64,000 nt of DNA from Myxococcales bacterium (GTDB lineage: Bacteria; Myxococcota_A; Polyangia; Nannocystales; Nannocystaceae). Location of the stretch: assembly GCA_020633295.1 (NCBI GenBank), contig JACKDW010000001.1:1149828-1213827 (forward strand), written 5' to 3'. Under the pieces are notes generated by a model. The model was not told the DNA's origin. It made no database searches and saw only the letters and a list, made by a program, of their open reading frames with translations. The translations under genes were made by a program, and so were the position numbers. Of this stretch, positions 8,765-61,361 are shown piece after piece. Each line of letters begins with the position of its first letter. The stretch's first letter is position 1.

Positions 8765-11188
8765 ATGATCGAGTTCGGGACTCCACCGCGACGAGCTCGC
8801 CAGCGTCGAGCGCTCGCGGCGACGCTCGCGGGCGCGCTCCTCGTGATCACGGCGCCTGCCCTCTCGGCCTGCTCGGCCCCGCGGACCGGCGACGGCCCCG
8901 ACGCGGGCGCGACGCCTGATCCGCCGCTCCACGGTGACGCGATGCAGAAAAAACGGCAGCACGAACCGGACGAGAAGACCTCCAACGCGGCGCTGACCCT
9001 CGAGGAGGTCGCCGCCTACCCGCGCCCCGGCGCGACGCACCCGACCAAGCTCGCGTTCACGCCCGACGACGCGCGCGTGACCTACCTGCGCAGCCCGGAG
9101 CTGACGCTCACGCGCCAGCTCTACGACTTCGACCCCGCGCCGCGCGACGGCCGGGGGCAAGAGCAGCAGCTCGTCGCGCTCGAGGGCGACGGCATCACCG
9201 AGGAGAACCTCTCGCGCGAGGAGAAGCTGCGGCGCGAGCGGCAGCGCGTGCGCGGGCTCGGCATCACGCGCTACGACTGGGCGCGCGAGGGCGACGTGCT
9301 GCTCTACCCGCTCGCCGGCGAGCTGCACCTGCGCGATCGCGCCGGCAGCTGGAGCACGACGTACAAGAACGCCGCCGCGAGCGGCGACGACGACGGCGGG
9401 GCGCCGCCGCTCGACGCCCGCCTGTCCCGCGACGGCCGCCACGTCGCGTTCGTCCAGGGCGGCGAGCTGATGGTCGCCGACGTCGCCGGCGACAAGCCGC
9501 TCAAGCCGCGCGCGCCGATCCAGAGCCCGCGCGCGCCGGGCACGACCCGCGGGCTCGCCGAGTACATCGCCCAGGAGGAGATGGACCGCGACCACGGCTA
9601 CTGGTGGTCCCACGACGGCGAGCTGCTCGCGTTCGCCGAGGTCGACGAGACCCACATCCCCAGCTTCCGCATCGTCCATCAGGGCGCCGGTCCCCACGAG
9701 TTCGAAGATCATCGCTACCCCTTCGCCGGCGAGGACAACGCGCGCGTGCGCCTCGGCGTGGTCCCCAGGACAGGCGGCGCGCCGGTCTGGATGCAGCTCG
9801 GCGAGTTCGAGTACCTCGCGCGCGTGAACTGGACGCCCGACGGCGCGCTCGTCGCCCAGGTCCAGGACCGCGAGCAGTCGCAGCTGCGCCTGATCAAGCT
9901 CGACCCGCGGACCGGGGCCGGCCGCGACCTCCTGATCGAGCGCTCGAGCGTGTGGATCAACCTCCACCACATCTTCAAGCCGCTCGAGGAGCCCGCCGAG
10001 GTCGTGGGCGACGCCGCCGGCGGCTTCGTCTGGGCCTCCGAGCGCAGCGGCTTCCGCCACCTGTACCTGTACTCCGGCGAGGGCGAGGAGCTGCGGCAGC
10101 TGACGATGGGCCCCTGGCAGGTCGACGGCGTGGTCGCGATCGATGAGCCCGGCCGGCTCGTGTACTTCCTCGCCAACCGGGACGACCCGACGCAGAAGCA
10201 CCTCTACTCGGTGCCGCTCGCCGGCGGCGCGATCACGCAGATCACGACGAAGCCGGGCACGCATGACGTCGTCATCGACCACGCGCGCAGGCGCTTCATC
10301 GACGTCCACTCGAGCGTCGCCGCGCCCGAGACGGTGACGCTGCGCGAGCTGTCCCCGAGGGCCCCCGTCATCGCCGAGCTGCCGGTCCCCGCCGACCCCC
10401 GCGTCGCCGCGCTCAAGCTGCCGCCCCCGCAGCTGGTCACGCTGCAGAGCCGCGACAACACCACGCTGCACGGCGCGATCTACAGCCCAGACCCCGACGT
10501 CTTCGGCGACGGGCCGTACCCCACGATGATCTCGGTCTACGGCGGACCGCACGCGCAGCGCGTGCAGAACAACTGGGCGATGACCGTCGACATGCGCGCG
10601 CAGTACCTCGCCGCCCACGGCGTCCTCGTGTTCAAGCTCGACAACCGCGGCTCCTCGCGCCGCGGCCTCGACTTCGAGGGCGCGCTCAAGCACGACATGG
10701 GCAACATCGAGGTCAAGGACCAGGTCGACGGCGTCGACTGGCTCGTCGCCCAGAAGCTCACCGACCCCGACCGCGTCGGCATCTACGGCTGGAGCTACGG
10801 CGGCTACATGTCCGCGATGGCGCTGGCGCGCGCGCCCGAGACCTTCAAGCTCGCGATCGCGGGCGCGCCGGTGTCGACCTGGCGCGCCTACGACACCCAC
10901 TACACCGAGCGCTACATGGGGCTGCCCGGGGCCAACGCGGCGGGCTACGAGCGCGCGAGCGTGATGCACCACCTCGAGCACATGCGCGGCGCGCTCCTGC
11001 TCGTGCACGGGCTCATCGACGAGAACGTGCACTTCCGCCACACCGCGCACCTGATCAACGGCCTGATCGCCGCGCGCAAGCCCTACGATCTGCTGCTGTT
11101 CCCGGGCGAGCGCCACATGCCGCGCAAGCTCGAGGATCGCGTGCACATGGAGCAGCAGCTGTTCGCGTTCATCCGCGAGCACCTGTAG
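8765..11188 (+). CDS. Dipeptidyl-peptidase IV / S9B-family prolyl oligopeptidase (DPP-IV N-terminal propeller plus alpha/beta hydrolase)
   Basis: Signal peptide then propeller region. Catalytic GWSYGGY nucleophile elbow. Downstream Asp and His ([14 protein letters not shown]). Confidence 0.8.
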
Positions 11189-26363: not shown

Positions 26364-26551
26364 CTAGACGTCGTGCGGGCGGACCGTGCTGCGGTTGTTG
26401 CTCTTGCAGCGAACGATGGCCTGCTGAAGCAGCTGATGGACCTTCTCGGACACAGCTGAGACCAACTCACCGTCGCTGCGCATACCGGCCTGGCGGATCA
26501 CATCCCTGACCTTGCTGCCCACGACAAGAGTCTCCTTGTTGTTATTTGCCA
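26364..26551 (-). CDS. Small bacterial histone-fold (DUF1931-like) protein, 62 aa
   Basis: MANNNKETLVVGSKVRDVIRQAGMRSDGELVSAVSEKVHQLLQQAIVRCKSNNRSTVRPHDV has helix-loop-helix-loop-helix spacing and a C-terminal RxTVxxxDV resembling archaeal/bacterial histone folds. Sits in a locally AT-rich island. Confidence 0.5.
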
Positions 26552-27013
26552 TTGCGGTGTTCTTTCGTTCTTCGCTGTCGAATGAGAGGGTGGTAGCGGT
26601 TTCATGGGCCGGAGCGAGAGTCCGACACACCGCGACGCACCATAAACCCGTTCTACGCGCCTGCAAAGCCCCAGGAGACGCAAAAATCGAAAAAAGTGCT
26701 GCGATCGGCAGTCGCAGGGGGTGCATCTTCATCGTCTGCAGGCCCCACCTGGGGGGTTCTCGGCGTCACCTCGTGCCGTCATCACCCCCCGAAGCGCAGC
26801 CCTCGAGTTGTACGAGCATGCACTCCGCGTCCTCCCTCGCCCCCCGCCAAATCGCCCCACAAACGACGATCTCGGCGGTTTCGCGGGACATGTCGGACCG
26901 GCCTCGACGCGCCTTCGGCCCGACCGCGACCCGACCTCAACCACCTCGACCCTCAACCCGAACGTATCGGGCGCGTCGGAGCTCGTGGATGGTCGGCACG
27001 ACGATCTCGTCGT

Positions 27014-48579: not shown

Positions 48580-50046
48580 ATGCCGCCCCGGTCCTACGCG
48601 CCCGAGCTCACGCGGGCCCACCTCAGCAACCGCTTCCTCGGCAGCCTGATCCGCTACTTCACCGAGCACTTCGGGGAGGACCGCGTGGGCGCGATCGTCG
48701 AGGAGGCCGGGCTCAGCCTCGCGTACCTCTACGACACCTCGCGCTGGACCTCGGTCGAGTTCGACCGGCGCCTGTGCGACGCGGTCGCGCACCAGATCGG
48801 CGGGCTCGTCGACGCGCCGCCCTACAACCACCCGCTGTGGCAGCACTGGCGCCGCGCGTCCTCGGCGATGTTCGACCGCCAGGACGTCATGGGGCCGCTG
48901 TGGCTGCTGCTCTGGTCGTTCGAGCAGCCTTCGAACTTCTTCGCCAACATCGACAACCTGTACACGCGCGGCAACCGAGTCACGCGCATGGAGGTCGTCG
49001 CGCACGCGCCCGGGCGCACGCTCGTGCGCGCGCGCTTCGAGGGGCCGCTGCGCGTCGATCGCCCCGGGACGTGCTGGAGCCGACGCGGGCTGTTCGAGGC
49101 CATCCCGACGATCTGGCGGCTGCCGCGAGCGAGCGTCGTCCACCCGCCGCACCAGTGTATCCACCGCGCCCACCGGGCCGAGCACTGCATCTACGACATC
49201 CGCTACCACGACGCGCAGGAGGTCGACCCGAGCGAGGAGCTCGCGCGCCTGCGGCGGCAGATCCGGCGGGCCCTGCCCGCGCTGCTCGAGTCCATGGACC
49301 GGCAGTACGAGGAGCACCGCGAGGCGCTGATCACTCAGCGCAAGACCGCGCACTACCTGCCGCCCTCGCTGGTCGAGGCGATCCGCATCAACCCCGAGGC
49401 CGAGCTGCGCCTCGGCGGCGAGCACAACACCGGCGCCGTGCTGTTCGCCGACATCAAGGGCTTCACCGCGCGCTGCCGCACGACCCCGGCGGACGAGGTG
49501 ATGACGCAGCTCAACCTGTACTTCGAGCGCGTCGAGTCGATCATCGAGGCCCACGGCGGGATCGTCGACAAGCGCATGGGCGACGGCCTCATGGTCGTGT
49601 TCATCGACCCCGAGCGCGGCACGCCGCTGACGACGCTCGCGGCGGCCGCCGTGCGCTGCGGGCTCGCCATGCTCGACGTCATGCCGGCGCTCGGCGAGGT
49701 CCTGGCGACGCGCGGCGCCGAGCCGCTGCACCTGCGCGTCGGCGTGGCCGCCGGGCGCGTCGTCCAGGGCAACCTCGGCTCGGCGCGGCGCATGGAGTAC
49801 ACGGTCATCGGCGAGGCGGTGAACCTCGCCTCGCGGCTCGAGACGGCCGCGCCCGCCGACCGCCTGCTGTGCACGCCCGAGTGCCTCGCCGACGTCGAGC
49901 CCGAGCTCTACAAGCGCCAGGACGCGCGCGTGGTCGACGTCAAGGGCGTCGGCCCGGTCCGCACGATCGAGCTGACGCCCGCGCTCGGGGCCGCGCGCAC
50001 GCCGAGGCCGTCGGACTCGTCGATCATGCGCCTGCGCGAGCTGTGA
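48580..50046 (+). CDS. Class III adenylate/guanylate cyclase with about 270-aa N-terminal domain of unknown function
   Basis: Cyclase core VLFADIKGFT...GDGLMVVF...YTVIGEAVNLASRLE. N-terminal region Cys/His/Trp-rich without obvious TM. Confidence 0.7.
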   Translation: MPPRSYAPELTRAHLSNRFLGSLIRYFTEHFGEDRVGAIVEEAGLSLAYLYDTSRWTSVEFDRRLCDAVAHQIGGLVDAPPYNHPLWQHWRRASSAMFDRQDVMGPLWLLLWSFEQPSNFFANIDNLYTRGNRVTRMEVVAHAPGRTLVRARFEGPLRVDRPGTCWSRRGLFEAIPTIWRLPRASVVHPPHQCIHRAHRAEHCIYDIRYHDAQEVDPSEELARLRRQIRRALPALLESMDRQYEEHREALITQRKTAHYLPPSLVEAIRINPEAELRLGGEHNTGAVLFADIKGFTARCRTTPADEVMTQLNLYFERVESIIEAHGGIVDKRMGDGLMVVFIDPERGTPLTTLAAAAVRCGLAMLDVMPALGEVLATRGAEPLHLRVGVAAGRVVQGNLGSARRMEYTVIGEAVNLASRLETAAPADRLLCTPECLADVEPELYKRQDARVVDVKGVGPVRTIELTPALGAARTPRPSDSSIMRLREL

Positions 50047-50058
50047 GCGCGCGGCGTT

Positions 50059-50637
50059 CTACATGTCTTCAGGGTCATCATGGTCGGCGCCGTCGCGACC
50101 GCGGCCGAGCGGGAACGCGGCCTCGACCCGGTACTTCGAGCCGTGCCGGGAGAGCACGCTCGAGTACAGCCGCACCGCGTCGACGCGAAACGGCAGGCAG
50201 GCGTACAGCGCGTGCGCCTGGACGAACTCGGCGACGCGGCGCTCGGGCGTCCGCTTGAGCCGCGCGAGCGTCACGTGCGGCGCGAACTTGCGGCGCTCGG
50301 GCTCGATCCCCAGCGGCGTGAGCAGGCGATCGACGCGGCGCTTGAGCTCGCGGACCGGCTCCGGGTGGCGCACGCCGACCCAGATCACGCGCGGCTGGCC
50401 GCGCGGCGGGAACACGCCGACGCCCGCGAGCTCGAGCTCGAACGCGGGCGCCTCGAGCTCGCCGAGCGCGTCCGTGATCGCGCGCGCGAGCCCGCCGTCC
50501 GTGTCGCCGAGGAAGGTCAGCGTGAGGTGAAGCTTGTCGCGGCCCTCCCAGCGCGCGCCCGGCAGCCCGCCGTGCAGGAGCTCGAGCTGCTGGTCGACGA
50601 GGTCGGGGAGGTCGAGGCCGATGAACAGGCGCGGCAC
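50059..50637 (-). CDS. thpR: RNA 2',3'-cyclic phosphodiesterase (2H family, ThpR/LigT)
   Basis: Two HxT/Sx motifs: HLTLTFLG and HVTLARL. Confidence 0.7.
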   Translation of the reverse strand: MPRLFIGLDLPDLVDQQLELLHGGLPGARWEGRDKLHLTLTFLGDTDGGLARAITDALGELEAPAFELELAGVGVFPPRGQPRVIWVGVRHPEPVRELKRRVDRLLTPLGIEPERRKFAPHVTLARLKRTPERRVAEFVQAHALYACLPFRVDAVRLYSSVLSRHGSKYRVEAAFPLGRGRDGADHDDPEDM

Positions 50638-52908: not shown

Positions 52909-53466
52909 TCACACCGCGGCGTCGTGCTGCGGACGGCCCCGCGCGAGCTTGCGCTGCAGGCTGCGCCGATGCATGCCGAGGCGCCGCGCCGCCTCGGAGA
53001 TGTTGCCCTGGCAGTCGGTCAGGACTTTCTGCAGGTGCTCCCACTCGAGCTCGTCGAGCGGCTTGGCGGCCGTCGGCGCGGGGAGGTCGATCAGCGAGGC
53101 CTGCTTGCGCGAGAACGCCGCGAGGATCTCGTCGGGCTCGGCGGGCTTCGTCAGGTAGTGCACGGCGCCGAGCTTGATCGCCTCGACGGCGCTGGCGATG
53201 CTGCCGTAGCCGGTCAGCACGACGATCTCGATCTCCGGGTCGAGCTGCTTGAGCGCGGCGACCAGCTCGAGGCCGTTGCGGCCGGGCATGCGCATGTCGA
53301 CGACGGCGCGCGCGGGGTTCCAGGCGCGCGCCTCGGAGAGCGCCTCGTCGTAGCCGTGGGCGATCACGACGGCGAAGCCGCGGCGACGGAACGACCCAGC
53401 GAGCGCCCCGCAGAACGGCTTGTCGTCATCGACGACCAGAACGTATTCGCGCGTCTCGGCACCCAT
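52909..53466 (-). CDS. regA: Response regulator of the RegA/PrrA/ActR type (REC + Fis-type HTH)
   Basis: LVVDDD...D...TGYGS...K REC. C-terminal GNISEAARRLGMHRRSLQRKL nearly identical to the canonical RegA HTH. ATG at 53464-53466. Confidence 0.7.
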   Translation of the reverse strand: MGAETREYVLVVDDDKPFCGALAGSFRRRGFAVVIAHGYDEALSEARAWNPARAVVDMRMPGRNGLELVAALKQLDPEIEIVVLTGYGSIASAVEAIKLGAVHYLTKPAEPDEILAAFSRKQASLIDLPAPTAAKPLDELEWEHLQKVLTDCQGNISEAARRLGMHRRSLQRKLARGRPQHDAAV

Positions 53467-53530
53467 GGCGTTCCCCCTGCAGTTGTGAACGAGCCCTCTT
53501 CCGGTGATCGTCTCGGCAGTCTTCGAATGT

Positions 53531-53602
53531 GTCGGCGAGGTTGTCGGCGAGGTTGTCAGCGAAGTTGTCAGCGAAGTTGTCCGCGAAGCCGTCCGCGACG
53601 AC
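53531..53602. repeat. 12-bp tandem repeat x6 between regB and regA
   Basis: gtcggcgaggtt x2, gtcagcgaagtt x2, gtccgcgaagcc, gtccgcgacgac. Confidence 0.85.
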
Positions 53603-53740
53603 GCGTCGCCGCGTGAGAAAAGCGTGCAGCTGATCTTACGTAAGGGCAAGGGGAGTGAGCCGACTCTCGCGACCGGACGTCGCACCCACGCCGCCGCCCC
53701 GCGTAATCGGCAGCGCGCGCCCGCGGTTCGGGGTTTCTCG

Positions 53741-55051
53741 CTACACGCCGGCGAGCGTCGCGTGCTGCGGCCGGACCGGGAAGCGCACGCGCGCCTTCGT
53801 GCCCCGGTCCGGGCTCGACTCGAGCTCGATCGAGCCGCCGAGCTGGCGCAGGTGCGCGCGCGCGAGGTACAGGCCCAGGCCCATCCCGCGGCCCTCCTCC
53901 TTGGTCGAGTAGAAGGGGTTGAAGGCGCGCGCGAGCGCCTGCTCGTCCATGCCCACGCCGTCGTCGACGACCTCGACGAAGACCTCCCCGTCGAGGACGT
54001 CGAAGCGCGCCACGACCTCGCGCGCGCCCGGGTGGTTGCGACAGGCCGCCGCCGCGTTCGAGACCAGCTCGCGGAGGATCTGGCCGATGACCTCACGCGG
54101 CTGCCGGACCTCGTCGGGCGGTCGCACCGCGGGCGTGAACACGACGCGCACGCGGACCCCGACCGCGGCCTCCACCAGCTCGTCCTCGAGGTCGCGCAGG
54201 GACCACGCGTCGACCTCGCGCCCGAGCTGCGGCAGCCGCAGCTCGGGCGAGGCCATCTGGTGGATGATGTGCTTGCAGCGGCGGACCTGCTGCTTGATGG
54301 TCGTGATCGACTCCTCGCGCTCGTCCTCGCCCATGTAGTCGAGATCGCCGACGAGCGCGCTGATCGTGCCCAGCGGCGAGCCCAGCTCGTGGGCGGCGCC
54401 GGCGGCCAGGGTCCCGAGCGCCGCGAGGTTGCGATCCTGCAGCGCCTCCTCGCGCAGGCGCGCGAGCTCGCCCCGCTGGCGCGCGAGCGACATCGCGATG
54501 CGGTGCACGAAGTAGGTCATGAAGGTGCCGGAGATCGCGAACGCGACCCACATGCCGCGGATGTGCGCCGAGAGGTGCTCGCCGTGCCCGGCCACGGCGC
54601 CGACGCCCGGCGAGACCAGGAACAGCGCGGCGAAGCCGGCGAGGCAGTAGAGCGCGAGCGTCCACATCCAGCGCGGCGAGATCTGGGTCGCCAGCGTGAT
54701 GGGCACGAAGAACATCGTCGTGAACGGGTTGGACACCCCGCCCGAGAGGGCCAGCAGCGCCGTCAGGGCGGTGGCGTCGATCATCAGGTGCGCGCCGGCG
54801 ATGTTCGGCGTCGCCTTGCCCGGCTTCAGGATCCAGCGCTGGGTCGCGAGGTTGAGCGCGACGAGCACGATCATCACCGCGCCGGTGCCTCGCGGTTCGG
54901 GCGGCGGCGGGAACCAGTTGATGATCCGGACCCAGGTCGGCGGGTGCAGCAGCTGCACCGTCCAGCCCAGCGCGATCAGGCCGAGCAGCACCCAGCGCGC
55001 GAACACGAAGGTCCGCAGCGCGATGTTGGCCGAAGACCGGGCGGCGGGCAC
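53741..55051 (-). CDS. regB: Membrane sensor histidine kinase of the RegB/PrrB type
   Basis: Conserved quinone-site heptapeptide GGVSNPF in TM region. H-box AHELGSPLG. Redox Cys region RRCKHII. N, G1, G2 boxes. Confidence 0.7.
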   Translation of the reverse strand: MPAARSSANIALRTFVFARWVLLGLIALGWTVQLLHPPTWVRIINWFPPPPEPRGTGAVMIVLVALNLATQRWILKPGKATPNIAGAHLMIDATALTALLALSGGVSNPFTTMFFVPITLATQISPRWMWTLALYCLAGFAALFLVSPGVGAVAGHGEHLSAHIRGMWVAFAISGTFMTYFVHRIAMSLARQRGELARLREEALQDRNLAALGTLAAGAAHELGSPLGTISALVGDLDYMGEDEREESITTIKQQVRRCKHIIHQMASPELRLPQLGREVDAWSLRDLEDELVEAAVGVRVRVVFTPAVRPPDEVRQPREVIGQILRELVSNAAAACRNHPGAREVVARFDVLDGEVFVEVVDDGVGMDEQALARAFNPFYSTKEEGRGMGLGLYLARAHLRQLGGSIELESSPDRGTKARVRFPVRPQHATLAGV

Positions 55052-55115
55052 CGACGCATCATGCCACGCGCGCGGGCGCGCCGGACGATCGAAGCGTCAG
55101 GGGGCGCCGCGACGC

Positions 55116-55367
55116 TCAGTTCGTGTCCGTGTCGGACTCGGTGTGCGCGTGCTCGTGGCCGTCGGTGTCGGTCTCGGTCGACTCGCCGCTGTCGGTCTCG
55201 TGCCCGTGCTCCTCCTGGCACGTGCCCTGACCGTCGTGGACGTCGCAGATGAGCCCCTCCGCGCAGTCCGAGTCCTTCTCGCAGACCTTGCCGACGCCGT
55301 CGTCGCAGGCCGCAGCCAAGGAGACGCCGAGGAGCAGACCGAGTACCGCCGTGGTGACGCGTCGCAT
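55116..55367 (-). CDS. Small lipoprotein with Cys-rich core and His/Asp/Glu/Thr-rich C-terminus (putative metal-binding)
   Basis: Lipobox GVSLAACDDG. CEKDSDCAEGLICD...GTCQ. EEHGHETD...DGHEHAHTESD. ATG at 55365-55367. Confidence 0.5.
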   Translation of the reverse strand: MRRVTTAVLGLLLGVSLAAACDDGVGKVCEKDSDCAEGLICDVHDGQGTCQEEHGHETDSGESTETDTDGHEHAHTESDTDTN

Positions 55368-55483
55368 GCCGGCACGGTATCGAGCGAGCGTCGCGGCGCG
55401 CAAGGGGGCTTCCCCTCGGCGCGGCTGCGACACGACGTCGCAACCCGACGCCCGGTCCCCGGGGCGCCGCAGCTCCAGGCGCT

Positions 55484-55858
55484 GTGATATGCAGCCTGGG
55501 CGTGGAGTTGTGTGTGACTACAACGTTCGAGGTGGCGCGGCGCGTCGTCGCGCTCGGGCTGCTCGCGCTGAGCGTCAGCGGCGGGCTGCTCGGCTGCATC
55601 GCCACGCTCGCGCCCAACGTCCGCGCCCGCGATCACCACGCGTCGCTCGAGCCGCGCAGCACCTGGGATGACTGCAGCGCCTGCCACGAGCTCGAGAGCG
55701 TCATGGCGCACCGGCTCGAGCACATGAGCCCGCGGGCGCGCGCCGGCGCCGAGGCCCAGGCCATGCGCGGCGGCGGGGCGCCGCTCGTGCGCGACTGGAT
55801 GGCCGAGGAGCCGCGCGGCTGCCTCGACTGCCACCGCCTGCGGGGGGGCGCGCCATGA
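55484..55858 (+). CDS. Small diheme c-type cytochrome lipoprotein
   Basis: Lipobox GGLLGCIA. Two CxxCH heme-binding motifs (CSACH, CLDCH). Confidence 0.55.
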   Translation: MICSLGVELCVTTTFEVARRVVALGLLALSVSGGLLGCIATLAPNVRARDHHASLEPRSTWDDCSACHELESVMAHRLEHMSPRARAGAEAQAMRGGGAPLVRDWMAEEPRGCLDCHRLRGGAP

Positions 55859-56775
55859 CTCGAGCGCCAGGTCGAGCGAGACGTCGAGCGCGCGCCGGCC
55901 TGCTGACCGCGGCGCTGGTCGCCGGGCTGGGCCTGACGCCCGCGCCCGCGCGCGCCCACCACACGCCGGGGCACAGCGCGTCGGAGGGCGTGCGCACGAT
56001 CAACAGCCTCGGCGGCACCGGCGGGCGGGCGCGCACGCGGCTGCTGCTGCTCAACGAGTACAGCTACACGGGGCAGGGGCTCAACCCGGGGCACTCCTAC
56101 ATCCTCTCGCTCTACGGCGAGTACGCGCCGATCCCCGACGTCTCGGTCGCCGTCCAGGCGCCGCTGCAGGTCGCGGCGTTCAAGGAGAACGACTACGCGC
56201 CGCTGGTCGGCTACGGCAACACCCGCGTCGCGCTGCGCGTGACCCCGCACGCGCGCAAGCTGATCCACCGCGTGCTCAGCACGGGCTTCAACCTCTCGAT
56301 CCCGACGCGCACGATCACGTTCCCGGTCGACCCCGGGCGCATCTGGGTGGTCACGCCCTACGTGATGTTCACGCGCACGTACACGCAGACCTACTACCAG
56401 GTGATCGCCCTCCTGCCCGTCGAGTCGCGACCCGCGGGCGTGGCCGTCGACCTCTCGCTCGGCGGGCAGGTCGGCACCCGCCTGCTCGACAGCAAGCTCT
56501 CGGCGGGCTTCGGCGCGCTCGTCGACGTCCGGCTCGCCAACTGGAAGGCCACGGTCGACGGCGGCCTCGAGTTCACGCCCGAGACCCGGCCCGGCGAGGG
56601 CCTGCCGGGCTCGTCGGACGATCGACCGATCGGCGCGACGCGGATCATCGGGACCATGAACACGGCCTACAACTTCGCGCGCTGGGGCTCGCTGATCGCC
56701 AGCCTGCAGCTCCCGCTGACGCCGAGGCACGACTTCACGGTCGGCGGCAGCCTCGGCCTCCAGGTGTTCTTCTAG
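55855..56775 (+). CDS. Outer-membrane beta-barrel protein, translationally coupled (ATGA) to the cytochrome gene
   Basis: Signal peptide ending PARAHH. Alternating amphipathic strands. C-terminal LGLQVFF with terminal Phe typical of OMP beta-signal. Confidence 0.55.
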   Translation: MTRAPGRARRRARAGLLTAALVAGLGLTPAPARAHHTPGHSASEGVRTINSLGGTGGRARTRLLLLNEYSYTGQGLNPGHSYILSLYGEYAPIPDVSVAVQAPLQVAAFKENDYAPLVGYGNTRVALRVTPHARKLIHRVLSTGFNLSIPTRTITFPVDPGRIWVVTPYVMFTRTYTQTYYQVIALLPVESRPAGVAVDLSLGGQVGTRLLDSKLSAGFGALVDVRLANWKATVDGGLEFTPETRPGEGLPGSSDDRPIGATRIIGTMNTAYNFARWGSLIASLQLPLTPRHDFTVGGSLGLQVFF

Positions 56776-56890: not shown

Positions 56891-58123
56891 CTAGAAGCGC
56901 CCGCGCAGCGTGAGCCCGCCCGGGGACAGCCCGGCGCGCAGCGTCGCCTGGGGCTTGCGGTCGCGCGTCCACACGAGCGCGGCGACGCCGAGGGTCACGA
57001 GCGCCGCGCCGCCCGCGAGCAGCAGCGCGCCGCCGATGTCGGTGTTGTAGCGCTTCTGGCAGTCGAACACGTCCATGCCCGTCGCGCCGTCGCAGCTCGC
57101 CCGCTGGTAGTCGCCGTCGACCGCCAGCAGCGCCGCGCCGGCGCCGAGCCCGAGCGCGCCGAGCCCGAGCGACGCCCACGCGAGCCCGCGGCGACGCTTG
57201 AACTCCTTCGGGCGCTCGAGCTGGACCTCGATCGTGTCGCGCACGCCCGGCGCCGTCACGAGCTCGCGCTCCTCGTCCTTGTAGTTATCCATGCTGACGC
57301 GCAGCACGTGCTTGCCGCGATCGACCTCGACCTCCACGGGCGACAGCCCGATCAGCTCGCCGTCGATGTACACGCGCGCGCCGGGCGGCTTCGTCGTCAG
57401 CGTCAGCTGGCCGGGGCGCGTCTCGAGCGAGTCGATGAGCAGCGCGGCGTTGGTCGCCAGCGACTCGCCGACCTCCGGCAGCCCGCAGGTGTCGCACTGG
57501 TCCGCCGCGTCCGTGATCACCTCGCCGTTGTCGAGCGAGTAGAGCTTGAGCGTGATCGCGTAGTCGCGATCGTCCGCCTCCACGCGCGTGCGCAGGATGT
57601 GGGTCGCGCCCGTCGCCGCGCGCAGGCGCTGGTAGCAGGTCGGATCCTGGCACACGGAGCCGACCGCGACCGAGACGCGCGTCGGATCGATCACGCGCAC
57701 CTTGCTGCGCCCGAGGCCCTCGAGCAGCGCGTCGGTCAGCGGCTCGACGAGGAACTGCGGGTCCGAGCCCGTGATCTCGAGCGGGTGGACCGCGACGGTG
57801 AACGACGCGAGCGCCGAGTCGTCGTCGATCGAGCTCGTGGCTGAAGATTCAGGTGGCGCTGCGCCGGGCGTCGCGCAGCCGGGCCGGGCGTCGCGCCCGG
57901 CGCGGGCGTCGCGACCGACGCAGGCGCCGGCGCGGGCGCAGGGGCTCTGCTGCGCGGCGGTCGTCGCCGCAGGCGCCGGCGTCTCAGGTGCCGCGGCCGC
58001 AGGCGTCCAGGTGCCGCGGGCGCCGCGACGCCGCTGACGGGCGCGAGCGCGAGGCATAGCGATATCGTCGTCGCGAGCGCGCGGGCGAGCGCGCGACGGG
58101 GCGCGGGCGATGGTGGCGGACAT
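56891..58123 (-). CDS. PEGA-domain protein with C-terminal transmembrane segment
   Basis: PEGA motif LTTKPPGARVYIDGELIGLSPVEVEVDRGKHVLRVS. C-terminal TM GALLLAGGAALVTLGVAALVW. Start uncertain. Confidence 0.55.
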   Translation of the reverse strand: MSATIARAPSRARPRARDDDIAMPRARARQRRRGARGTWTPAAAAPETPAPAATTAAQQSPCARAGACVGRDARAGRDARPGCATPGAAPPESSATSSIDDDSALASFTVAVHPLEITGSDPQFLVEPLTDALLEGLGRSKVRVIDPTRVSVAVGSVCQDPTCYQRLRAATGATHILRTRVEADDRDYAITLKLYSLDNGEVITDAADQCDTCGLPEVGESLATNAALLIDSLETRPGQLTLTTKPPGARVYIDGELIGLSPVEVEVDRGKHVLRVSMDNYKDEERELVTAPGVRDTIEVQLERPKEFKRRRGLAWASLGLGALGLGAGAALLAVDGDYQRASCDGATGMDVFDCQKRYNTDIGGALLLAGGAALVTLGVAALVWTRDRKPQATLRAGLSPGGLTLRGRF

Positions 58124-58202
58124 CCTGTCATCGGCTCTCTCTCCGGCTCGCTGCTCCGTCGGTCCTCCGACGCTCCTCCGTCGTCCCCGCGGCTCCTCCC
58201 GG

Positions 58203-61361
<3,159 letters not shown>

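Follow-up and report, generated by a model that had tools for sequence, protein, structure and literature searches.

What would a two-component system of the RegB/RegA type control in a myxobacterium, and why should it be encoded next to a set of small envelope proteins? The question is raised by five genes in a 64-kb stretch of contig JACKDW010000001.1 from a member of the Nannocystaceae (GC ~72%; the whole stretch is called the window below). Genes for a response regulator (RR), a histidine kinase (HK) and a mini-lipoprotein (LPP) lie on the minus strand, and divergently from them, on the plus strand, lie genes for a putative dihaem cytochrome c (CYT) and a predicted outer-membrane β-barrel protein (OMP). 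To judge from sequence comparisons, the regulatory half of this locus belongs to a well-known family, of which it forms a new and divergent branch, and its RegA-like regulator very probably binds a conserved palindrome in the divergent promoter, controlling the envelope genes. Support is good for the gene linkage and for the operator, and the mechanism is a proposal. Taking the locus as a whole, we lean towards the view that a divergent RegB/RegA redox system is found here beside the direct target to which it is most tightly linked, a module for a redox-active metal.

The related loci were collected in a synteny scan with one genome per species, which gave 30 loci from Nannocystis, Enhygromyxa, Plesiocystis and metagenome-assembled genomes (MAGs) of Polyangia/Nannocystaceae. 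When the intergenic DNA upstream of the CYT gene was listed for all of them, a shared palindrome, TGCGAC-N5-GTCGCA, surfaced. The window copy (TGCGACACGACGTCGCA, 55426-55442), our proposed operator of the RegA-like regulator, is placed 58 bp from the LPP start codon and 71 bp from the CYT start codon GTG 55514, and is the sole exact match in the 64 kb, against 0.05 expected. Exact copies of the core GCGAC-N5-GTCGC, often two in tandem, are found in 23 of the 30 loci, and six more have a site with one mismatch. There are 32 copies of the core in 6.9 kb of target intergenic DNA versus nine in 578 kb elsewhere, a ~300-fold enrichment, and three of these nine occurrences are themselves in HK-RR spacers: two in the window, starting at 53595 and 53669, and one in locus L002, at the same place in the spacer. 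In the window these box-like sites are an exact core at 53595-53609 and a 17-mer with one mismatch at 53668-53684. The palindrome is kept in loci of the genus Nannocystis that have no adjacent two-component system, including the promoters of those in which a DUF4198 gene takes the place of HK and RR (see below), and in the distant loci L037-L040, from relatives with a GC content of 58%, it precedes the barrel ATG by 50-52 bp; it recurs upstream of barrel genes that are just 32% identical.

The PrrA box has been described as YSCGGC(5)GWCRMA, and the RegR box as GNGRCRTTNNGNCGC (PMC5506826). The palindrome agrees with the former at 11 of 12 positions, and it matches the RegR half-sites GNGRC/GNCGC with an identical 5-bp spacer; our literature search found no paper that pairs GCGNC with PrrA. 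Taken together, these comparisons argue strongly that the RegA-like regulator binds the palindrome; if it does, it would control both divergent transcription units as well as its own genes. The preliminary description of the locus had guessed at RegBA control of the neighbours, and the conserved RegA/PrrA-type palindrome in the shared promoter lends comparative support to this guess. RegA/PrrA sites in alphaproteobacteria are degenerate, and chromatin immunoprecipitation sequencing gave no consensus (PMC4263372), so that a crisp palindrome, present in ~30 species, would offer a clean model of DNA recognition in the RegA family and a handle on its regulon in Myxococcota. Five other matches to GCGAC-N5-GTCGC in the window fall within coding sequence, and we regard them as chance. 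A version with one mismatch (TGCGATCGGCAGTCGCA) is found at 26700-26716, in a non-coding stretch of low GC (~55%), ~150 bp upstream of a ~62-aa gene (26364-26552, minus strand; MANNNKETLVVGSKVRDVIRQAG...); this may be another target or chance, as 0.9 such matches are expected per window.

The HK (53741-55051, minus strand, 436 aa) consists of ~6 transmembrane (TM) segments followed by HisKA and HATPase_c domains. Profile comparison with hidden Markov models (HMMs) bears out its affinity to the RegB family, as its best NCBIfam match is ActS/PrrB/RegB (NF033792, E 1.4e-52, 179 bits, positions 3-417 of 423), though under the curated cut-off. A hallmark of RegB is the heptapeptide GGXXNPF in the short TM3-TM4 loop (PMC3000548). 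In the window kinase, GGVSNPF occupies residues 104-110, between hydrophobic segments 84-103 and ~111-127, the third and fourth; the H-box histidine is His221, and Cys259 follows 38 residues beyond it, so that all three RegB features named in the preliminary description (heptapeptide, H-box and Cys) can be located in the sequence. Cys at +38 from the H-box His is present in 120 of 120 close homologues and is replaced by Met in the distant kinase of locus L039; in RegB itself, the redox-active Cys (Cys265) comes about 40 residues after the H-box His. Arg19, in an ARW motif of TM1, is invariant, alphaproteobacterial RegB-like kinases included; the nearest Gln in TM1, Q33, is 14 residues after this Arg, compared to seven in R. 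capsulatus (R31/Q38), and is not conserved. In an alignment with the alphaproteobacterial RegB-like kinases, four features coincide: the TM1 Arg, GGxxNPF, the H-box and the 'RCK' Cys. The predicted periplasmic loop between TM5 and TM6 contains a histidine cluster, GHGEHLSAH; at least three His are found across this stretch in 117 of 122 kinase homologues, and the alphaproteobacterial paralogues have none there. In the kinase encoded beside the most distant barrel (L041:1-1011), the loop before the last TM segment is hugely expanded and His-rich, with at least nine His (HGVHGVHGVH...HAEHDHGVHADHASHG...).

The RR (52909-53466, minus strand, 185 aa) combines a receiver domain (Response_reg, 1.7e-23) with a Fis-type helix-turn-helix (HTH_8, 7e-13). 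Its best NCBIfam match is ActR/PrrA/RegA (NF033791, E 7e-52, 175.9 bits), and its best match in the Protein Data Bank (PDB) is, over the full length, the B. pseudomallei protein 3RQI (2.8e-40). The helix-turn-helix is 100% identical among RegA, PrrA and RegR (PMC5506826). That of the window protein, which had been called almost identical to RegA/PrrA, is similar rather than nearly identical: 17 of 25 residues are the same as in R. sphaeroides PrrA (1UMQ), and the changes are mostly conservative.

Since both proteins score under the curated equivalog cut-offs of their families, we classify HK and RR as divergent members of the RegB/RegA (PrrBA/ActSR) family, not as orthologues of the canonical proteins. 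It would be too strong to call such a system unusual in myxobacteria, as was done at the outset: RegB-like kinases are plentiful in this order, with 1675 matches and at least 120 clusters at 49% identity or more, several of them labelled RegB by JGI. Our literature search on RegB in Myxococcota found no relevant paper. RegB/RegA-like paralogues also end cyoABCD-SURF1 clusters on alphaproteobacterial chromids (L044, a Palleronia plasmid, and L045, an Azospirillum brasilense plasmid), annotated merely as 'ATP-binding protein' and 'response regulator'. These cyo-linked kinases are likewise under the NF033792 cut-off, at 219-229 bits.

How firmly is the two-component system tied to the envelope genes? 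The synteny scan, which the preliminary description had proposed as a check, speaks for the linkage. CYT and OMP are paired in 30 of 30 loci; the HK-RR pair is adjacent and divergent in 15 of the 30, as it is in the window and in locus L032, where the order on an 11-Mb contig is OMP<-CYT | HK->RR; and LPP was found in 21 of the 30. In the genus Nannocystis, the two-component system is encoded elsewhere in the genome. Among OMP homologues with 25-32% identity, from contigs of 58% GC and other metagenomic contigs, a RegBA-like pair again adjoins the barrel gene: L039 and L040 have the order RR<-HK<-LPP | OMP, with a recognisable LPP orthologue of 79 aa, and L041 has HK->RR->OMP. No cytochrome gene is present in either arrangement. 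As these distant loci retain HK and RR and do without CYT, the conserved core consists of OMP, LPP and the two-component system, with CYT a Nannocystales-specific addition. The coupling of the two-component system to the module is frequent, not obligatory; a Nannocystis MAG, for example, has the orthologous HK-RR pair alone. When all flanking open reading frames (ORFs) were clustered, no other partner emerged as conserved besides the five genes and a LigT-family gene (see below), and an S1 protein, a DsbA-like protein, an M28 peptidase and an FGE-sulfatase are neighbours at the level of clades only.

Several side observations come from the same comparisons. In Paraliomyxa miuraensis (L034:351-7645), the orthologous HK-RR pair is found directly downstream of a nuo (complex I) cluster, with no OMP/CYT module in view. 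At the distant locus L037:1084-3015, the OMP gene is followed by genes for CcmH (cytochrome c maturation) and a pyridine-nucleotide-disulfide oxidoreductase, and rhodanese and CobW_C metallochaperone-like genes are near the barrel gene of L036. The contigs of two other distant barrels, P0188 and P0161, are too short to inform on their neighbourhood.

The barrel protein (OMP, 55855-56775, plus strand, 306 aa, C-terminal Phe) is predicted to have a 12-stranded fold similar to COG4313, and it has no CxxCH of its own. The family is tiny: exhaustive profile search found 53 clusters among 1.84 billion representative proteins, and the 25 relatives from a word-indexed search were all from Myxococcales or Nannocystis. 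Among 23 sequences, 58 alignment columns are invariant. A signal peptide is predicted to be cleaved at ARA|HH, and the most conserved part of the protein is the stretch of 27 residues before strand 1, A-x-A|HH[VT]PGH[GSA]ASEGVR. The mature chain starts with His-His in every family member examined, the weakest profile matches included; a second conserved His pair, in TPHAxKLIHR, is expected in a periplasmic turn. By analogy with known barrels, the His-His segment may lie in or under the pore. Two distant relatives, P0170 and P0165, have weak or faint precomputed matches to PF13557. In four homologues (P0005, P0006, P0007 and P0170), the chain extends beyond the terminal aromatic residue with an Arg/Lys run and then 40-80 His-rich residues (HGHTHSPGGTHSPEGHTHGPGD...); such tails would be periplasmic.

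The mini-lipoprotein (LPP, 55116-55367, minus strand, 83 aa) has a lipobox with Cys21, four cysteines and a tail rich in His, Asp and Glu. Its core reads C(lipid)...G-x2-C-x5-C-x5-C-D-x-H-x4-T-C-Q-x2-H-x-H; four Cys and three His (H44, H54 and H56) are invariant in 19 sequences, and the tail is variable, with several orthologues ending right after HxH and others bearing His/Asp/Glu-rich tails. Disulfide bonding of LPP is probable from this pattern. A profile search against the PDB returned knottin-like mini-proteins alone, at non-significant E-values of 0.07 or more. The gap between LPP and HK is 64 bp, and LPP probably heads an LPP-HK(-RR) transcript. In two loci of Enhygromyxa salina (L021:~9000-9558 and L022:~8870-9502), LPP carries a fused YtkA-like domain at its C-terminus (PF13115, E 8e-12), with an MPDHGHG motif; the YtkA family includes a B. 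subtilis factor for inserting copper into cytochrome oxidase. In the genus Nannocystis (L001:4032-4847; L005-L007, L009, L010 and L012), the LPP gene is followed by a DUF4198 gene, not by HK and RR; DUF4198 is annotated elsewhere as a periplasmic component of Ni/Co transport, and its mature N-terminus is His as well.

The putative cytochrome (CYT, 55514..55858, or from 55484, plus strand) has a lipobox and two haem motifs, CSACH and CLDCH. Invariant in 29 sequences are the lipobox Cys, P29, H37, the first motif as CxxCH-x2-E, V87, W90, M91 and the second CxxCH, and 26 residues nearly always separate the lipid Cys from the first haem motif (range 25-28). Word-indexed search gave three relatives; tblastn finds CYT in every related locus. 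An export signal and conserved homologues, whose absence would have counted against the idea in the preliminary description, are both present; with the profile and synteny results, none of the refuting conditions set out there came true. HMM and PDB matches are under the threshold (Paired_CXXCH_1, E 0.0087; TIGR01904, E 0.0037; cytochrome c554, E 0.078). The pattern fits a putative exported dihaem c-type cytochrome, with H37 and M91 as candidate distal ligands and haem attachment presumed from the motifs. In locus L019 (9614-9902) the CYT gene is split over two frames, with the second CxxCH alone in frame, which indicates either a frameshift pseudogene or an error of MAG assembly.

In DNA of such high GC content, long spurious ORFs are frequent, and the reality of these genes deserves a separate comment. 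The five are not chance products of high-GC ORFs, because residues are invariant across the orthologues of CYT, LPP and OMP; LPP, HK and RR are called as genes in a public assembly of the same organism too. All five are present where they were first reported. The start of CYT is ambiguous: it is either GTG 55484 (124 aa) or GTG 55514 (114 aa, the NCBI call, P0026), and the divergent spacer between LPP and CYT is consequently 116 or 146 bp. The original account, a 116-bp promoter region and a cytochrome of 124 aa, holds with the former start and not with the latter. The ATG of OMP overlaps the TGA of CYT, as ATGA.

What, then, could this locus do? In our preferred scheme, HK would report the redox state of the respiratory chain (quinone or thiol), and possibly periplasmic metal through the His cluster of the TM5-TM6 loop, and would phosphorylate the small regulator made of a receiver domain and a Fis-type helix-turn-helix. 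The regulator would then bind TGCGAC-N5-GTCGCA in the divergent promoter of 116-146 bp. Leftward, it would control the LPP gene and then, probably, the HK and RR genes, an autoregulation to which the two further box-like sites before the RR gene may contribute; rightward, it would control the translationally coupled CYT-OMP operon. On the periplasmic side of the outer membrane, the products may assemble into a small station composed of the narrow barrel, the disulfide-stabilised LPP and, in Nannocystales alone, CYT. Such a station could take up or handle a redox-active metal across the outer membrane, with CYT changing the oxidation state of the metal, and its expression would be tied to respiratory demand. 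Haem-copper oxidases are under RegBA control in other bacteria, and the gene that separates regB from regA in Rhodobacter, senC/prrC, encodes a copper chaperone; this respiratory theme is matched by the cyo-SURF1 and nuo contexts of the paralogues and orthologues. That the envelope proteins handle a redox-active metal is the most likely reading of their sequences, because of the His-His N-terminus of the barrel, the His-rich tails of OMP and LPP, the HxH of LPP, the YtkA fusion, the DUF4198 neighbour and the His cluster of the kinase; metal binding and the physiological role are deduced from these features. Copper is favoured as the metal, and Ni, Co, Zn and Fe are candidates as well.

A number of observations weigh against this scheme. 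HK and RR fall below the curated equivalog cut-offs, at 179 versus 350 bits and 175.9 versus 250 bits. Of 120 close homologues, 72 have Ser or Ala where the heptapeptide has Pro (P in 46, S in 42 and A in 30), and therefore quinone sensing is not assured in this clade. About half of the loci have no adjacent two-component system, and many RegB-like kinases of the order have no module nearby. The identity of the metal leans on indirect clues, a YtkA fusion in two species and on the DUF4198 neighbour. Pfam and NCBIfam scans assign neither LPP nor CYT to any family, and OMP belongs to no HMM family and has no Pfam match at E <= 0.1, PF13557 included. The AlphaFold2 model of CYT, built on a three-sequence alignment, has a pLDDT of 56 and is too poor for a fold search. 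The OMP segment before strand 1 is modelled with low confidence as well (pLDDT <50 at residues 27-42 and 49-54), and its place in or under the pore is argued by analogy. Finally, a scan for sigma-70-like promoters and terminators detected nothing.

Could the envelope proteins be inputs of the kinase, not its targets? LPP and OMP, with CYT where it is present, might act as a trans-envelope co-sensor, that is, as accessory inputs that inform HK, through its periplasmic His-rich loop, of the redox or metal status of the outer membrane or periplasm, in concept like RcsF threaded through OMPs or like NlpE-CpxA, and the box would then serve to autoregulate the unit. We consider this possible but unlikely. 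It would account for the LPP gene lying 64 bp upstream of HK and probably being co-transcribed with it; for the joint occurrence of OMP, LPP and the two-component system at 25-32% OMP identity in differing orders, with HK->RR->OMP on one strand; for a His cluster in the kinase that is clade-specific and greatly expanded in L041; and for the small, four-cysteine, probably disulfide-bonded build of LPP. Yet RegB-like kinases far outnumber the barrel (1675 matches versus 53 clusters) and occur without the module, the Nannocystis module is far from the two-component system and has LPP followed by DUF4198 instead, seven loci have no LPP at all, and homology to RcsF or NlpE is absent. The fuller version, in which OMP, LPP and CYT make up a new trans-envelope sensor of extracellular or periplasmic metal or redox state that signals to a RegB-type HK via the His cluster and is autoregulated through the operator, strikes us as somewhat more doubtful still; if true, it would be a route of input from the outer to the inner membrane that is not known for the RegB family. 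The opposite extreme, chance proximity of the two-component system to envelope genes with which it has no regulatory or functional tie, draws on the roughly half of related loci in which no two-component system is next to the module. It is very improbable, given a ~300-fold enriched palindrome that is found in the promoter of 29 of 30 loci, in GC-58% relatives and before the RR gene, and a linkage that recurs in independent gene orders.

Two further explanations concern the chemistry of the module. MtrB- and Cyc2-type barrels are much wider than the one predicted here: with 12 strands, and with a lumen of only ~10-12 Å, occluded by the N-terminus, in the closest structure, the window barrel would be too narrow for a haem domain. 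This tells against a miniature porin-cytochrome conduit, in which the dihaem lipoprotein, placed on or in the barrel, would move electrons across the outer membrane, for example to oxidise or reduce Fe(II) or another metal. Distant members, moreover, keep OMP, LPP and the two-component system without any cytochrome, which puts haem outside the core function. The conduit would explain why the CYT and OMP genes are translationally coupled and paired in 30 of 30 loci, and why both haem motifs and the candidate His/Met distal ligands are invariant; in At. ferrooxidans, too, the rus promoter is a binding site of RegA (PMC5506826). On balance we hold it improbable. We think equally little of a channel for a hydrophobic or aromatic molecule, phenolic or quinone-like, a role proposed for other COG4313 proteins; the barrel would import this molecule, CYT would oxidise or reduce it in the periplasm, and a quinone-sensing HK would tune expression. 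The window barrel has no Pfam match even at E 0.1, conservation in its family centres on His, Glu, Arg and Asp and not on a hydrophobic lateral cluster, and the His-rich tails, the YtkA fusion and the His-rich LPP would have no role in such a channel. We thus return to a redox-controlled metal module as the reading that we favour.

It is useful to set this module beside known systems. With RegB/RegA (PrrB/PrrA, ActS/ActR, RegS/RegR, RoxS/RoxR) it shares the kinase hallmarks (~6 TM segments, GGxxNPF, TM1 Arg, H-box and a Cys ~40 residues downstream), a regulator of ~185 aa with receiver domain and Fis-type helix-turn-helix, and an inverted repeat of GCG type with a 5-bp spacer. It differs in its HMM scores under the cut-offs, in having no senC/prrC between the HK and RR genes, in the variable Pro of the heptapeptide, in the extra periplasmic His cluster, in a perfect 17-mer palindrome instead of the degenerate alphaproteobacterial sites, and in its host, a myxobacterium of the Nannocystales. 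The nearest precedent for its function is Acidithiobacillus ferrooxidans, where RegBA controls the rus operon, for the porin-cytochrome Cyc2, dihaem Cyc1, rusticyanin and aa3 oxidase (PMC5506826). Both cases pair a RegBA-type system with an operon for an outer-membrane barrel and a periplasmic dihaem cytochrome that take part in the redox chemistry of metals, the control in our case being deduced from the operator and the chemistry being presumed. The proteins, however, are unrelated: here the 12-stranded barrel has no haem motif, CYT is a lipoprotein of ~90 mature residues, genes for an oxidase or a cupredoxin are missing, and iron oxidation is not known from the host, a neutrophilic aerobe.

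Of the barrels, COG4313/Phenol_MetA_deg (Pput2725, PDB 4RL8) has the same 12-stranded fold, but the identity is 11%, the window OMP lacks a Pfam match, its N-terminal segment is longer, strictly conserved and always starts with His-His, and its context and conserved residues speak for a metal, not for a hydrophobic substrate. MtrAB, PioAB, Pcc and the fused Cyc2 resemble our pair in that genes for a cytochrome c and an outer-membrane barrel are adjacent and co-translated; here, in contrast, the barrel is far too small, the two haems would be on a separate lipoprotein, and CYT is dispensable in distant relatives. The regB-senC-regA arrangement (SenC/PrrC), YtkA/CtaK and PCuAC offer a likeness for LPP, in that a small exported protein of metal-binding type is encoded with a RegB-type kinase and a YtkA-like domain appears in Enhygromyxa; the LPP core is not homologous to Sco/SenC, PCuAC or YtkA. 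RcsF with its outer-membrane partner and NlpE-CpxA are analogies only: a small, Cys-rich outer-membrane lipoprotein is tied to a barrel and a two-component phosphorelay, but sequence similarity is absent and the kinase family is another one.

HMM, structure-sequence and literature searches gave no described counterpart of the envelope half, in agreement with the initial impression that the combination is not a described system. That a barrel family has stayed with a RegB-type system over such deep divergence points to an undescribed way in which metal or redox chemistry at the outer membrane is tied to the redox control of respiration. Nannocystis, Enhygromyxa and Plesiocystis offer culturable hosts, which makes these proposals open to standard genetics and biochemistry.

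The surroundings of the five genes have features of their own. The HK-RR intergenic region (53467-53740) is unusually long, 274 bp versus just 3-9 bp in the orthologous pairs of L032 and L034, and an Rfam scan of it found no family near threshold. At 53530-53588 it contains 4.9 copies of a 12-bp unit (TGTCAGCGAAGT on the plus strand, GACAAC[TC]TCGC[TC] on the gene strand) with 93% match, and this tandem repeat adjoins the two box-like sites. Further out, the window encodes a class III adenylate/guanylate cyclase (48580-50046, plus strand), a PEGA-domain membrane protein (56891-58222, minus strand) and a large Ser/Thr kinase (58203-61361, minus strand) with an Asp/Asn-rich repeat and, apparent by eye alone, C-terminal TPR-like repeats. 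All three are signalling genes of a kind typical for myxobacteria, and none is conserved along with the module. A gene of the LigT/2',5'-RNA-ligase family (50059-50637, minus strand), shortly downstream of RR, is conserved in many loci, nine in the clustering of flanking ORFs; L032, L033 and L034 are examples.

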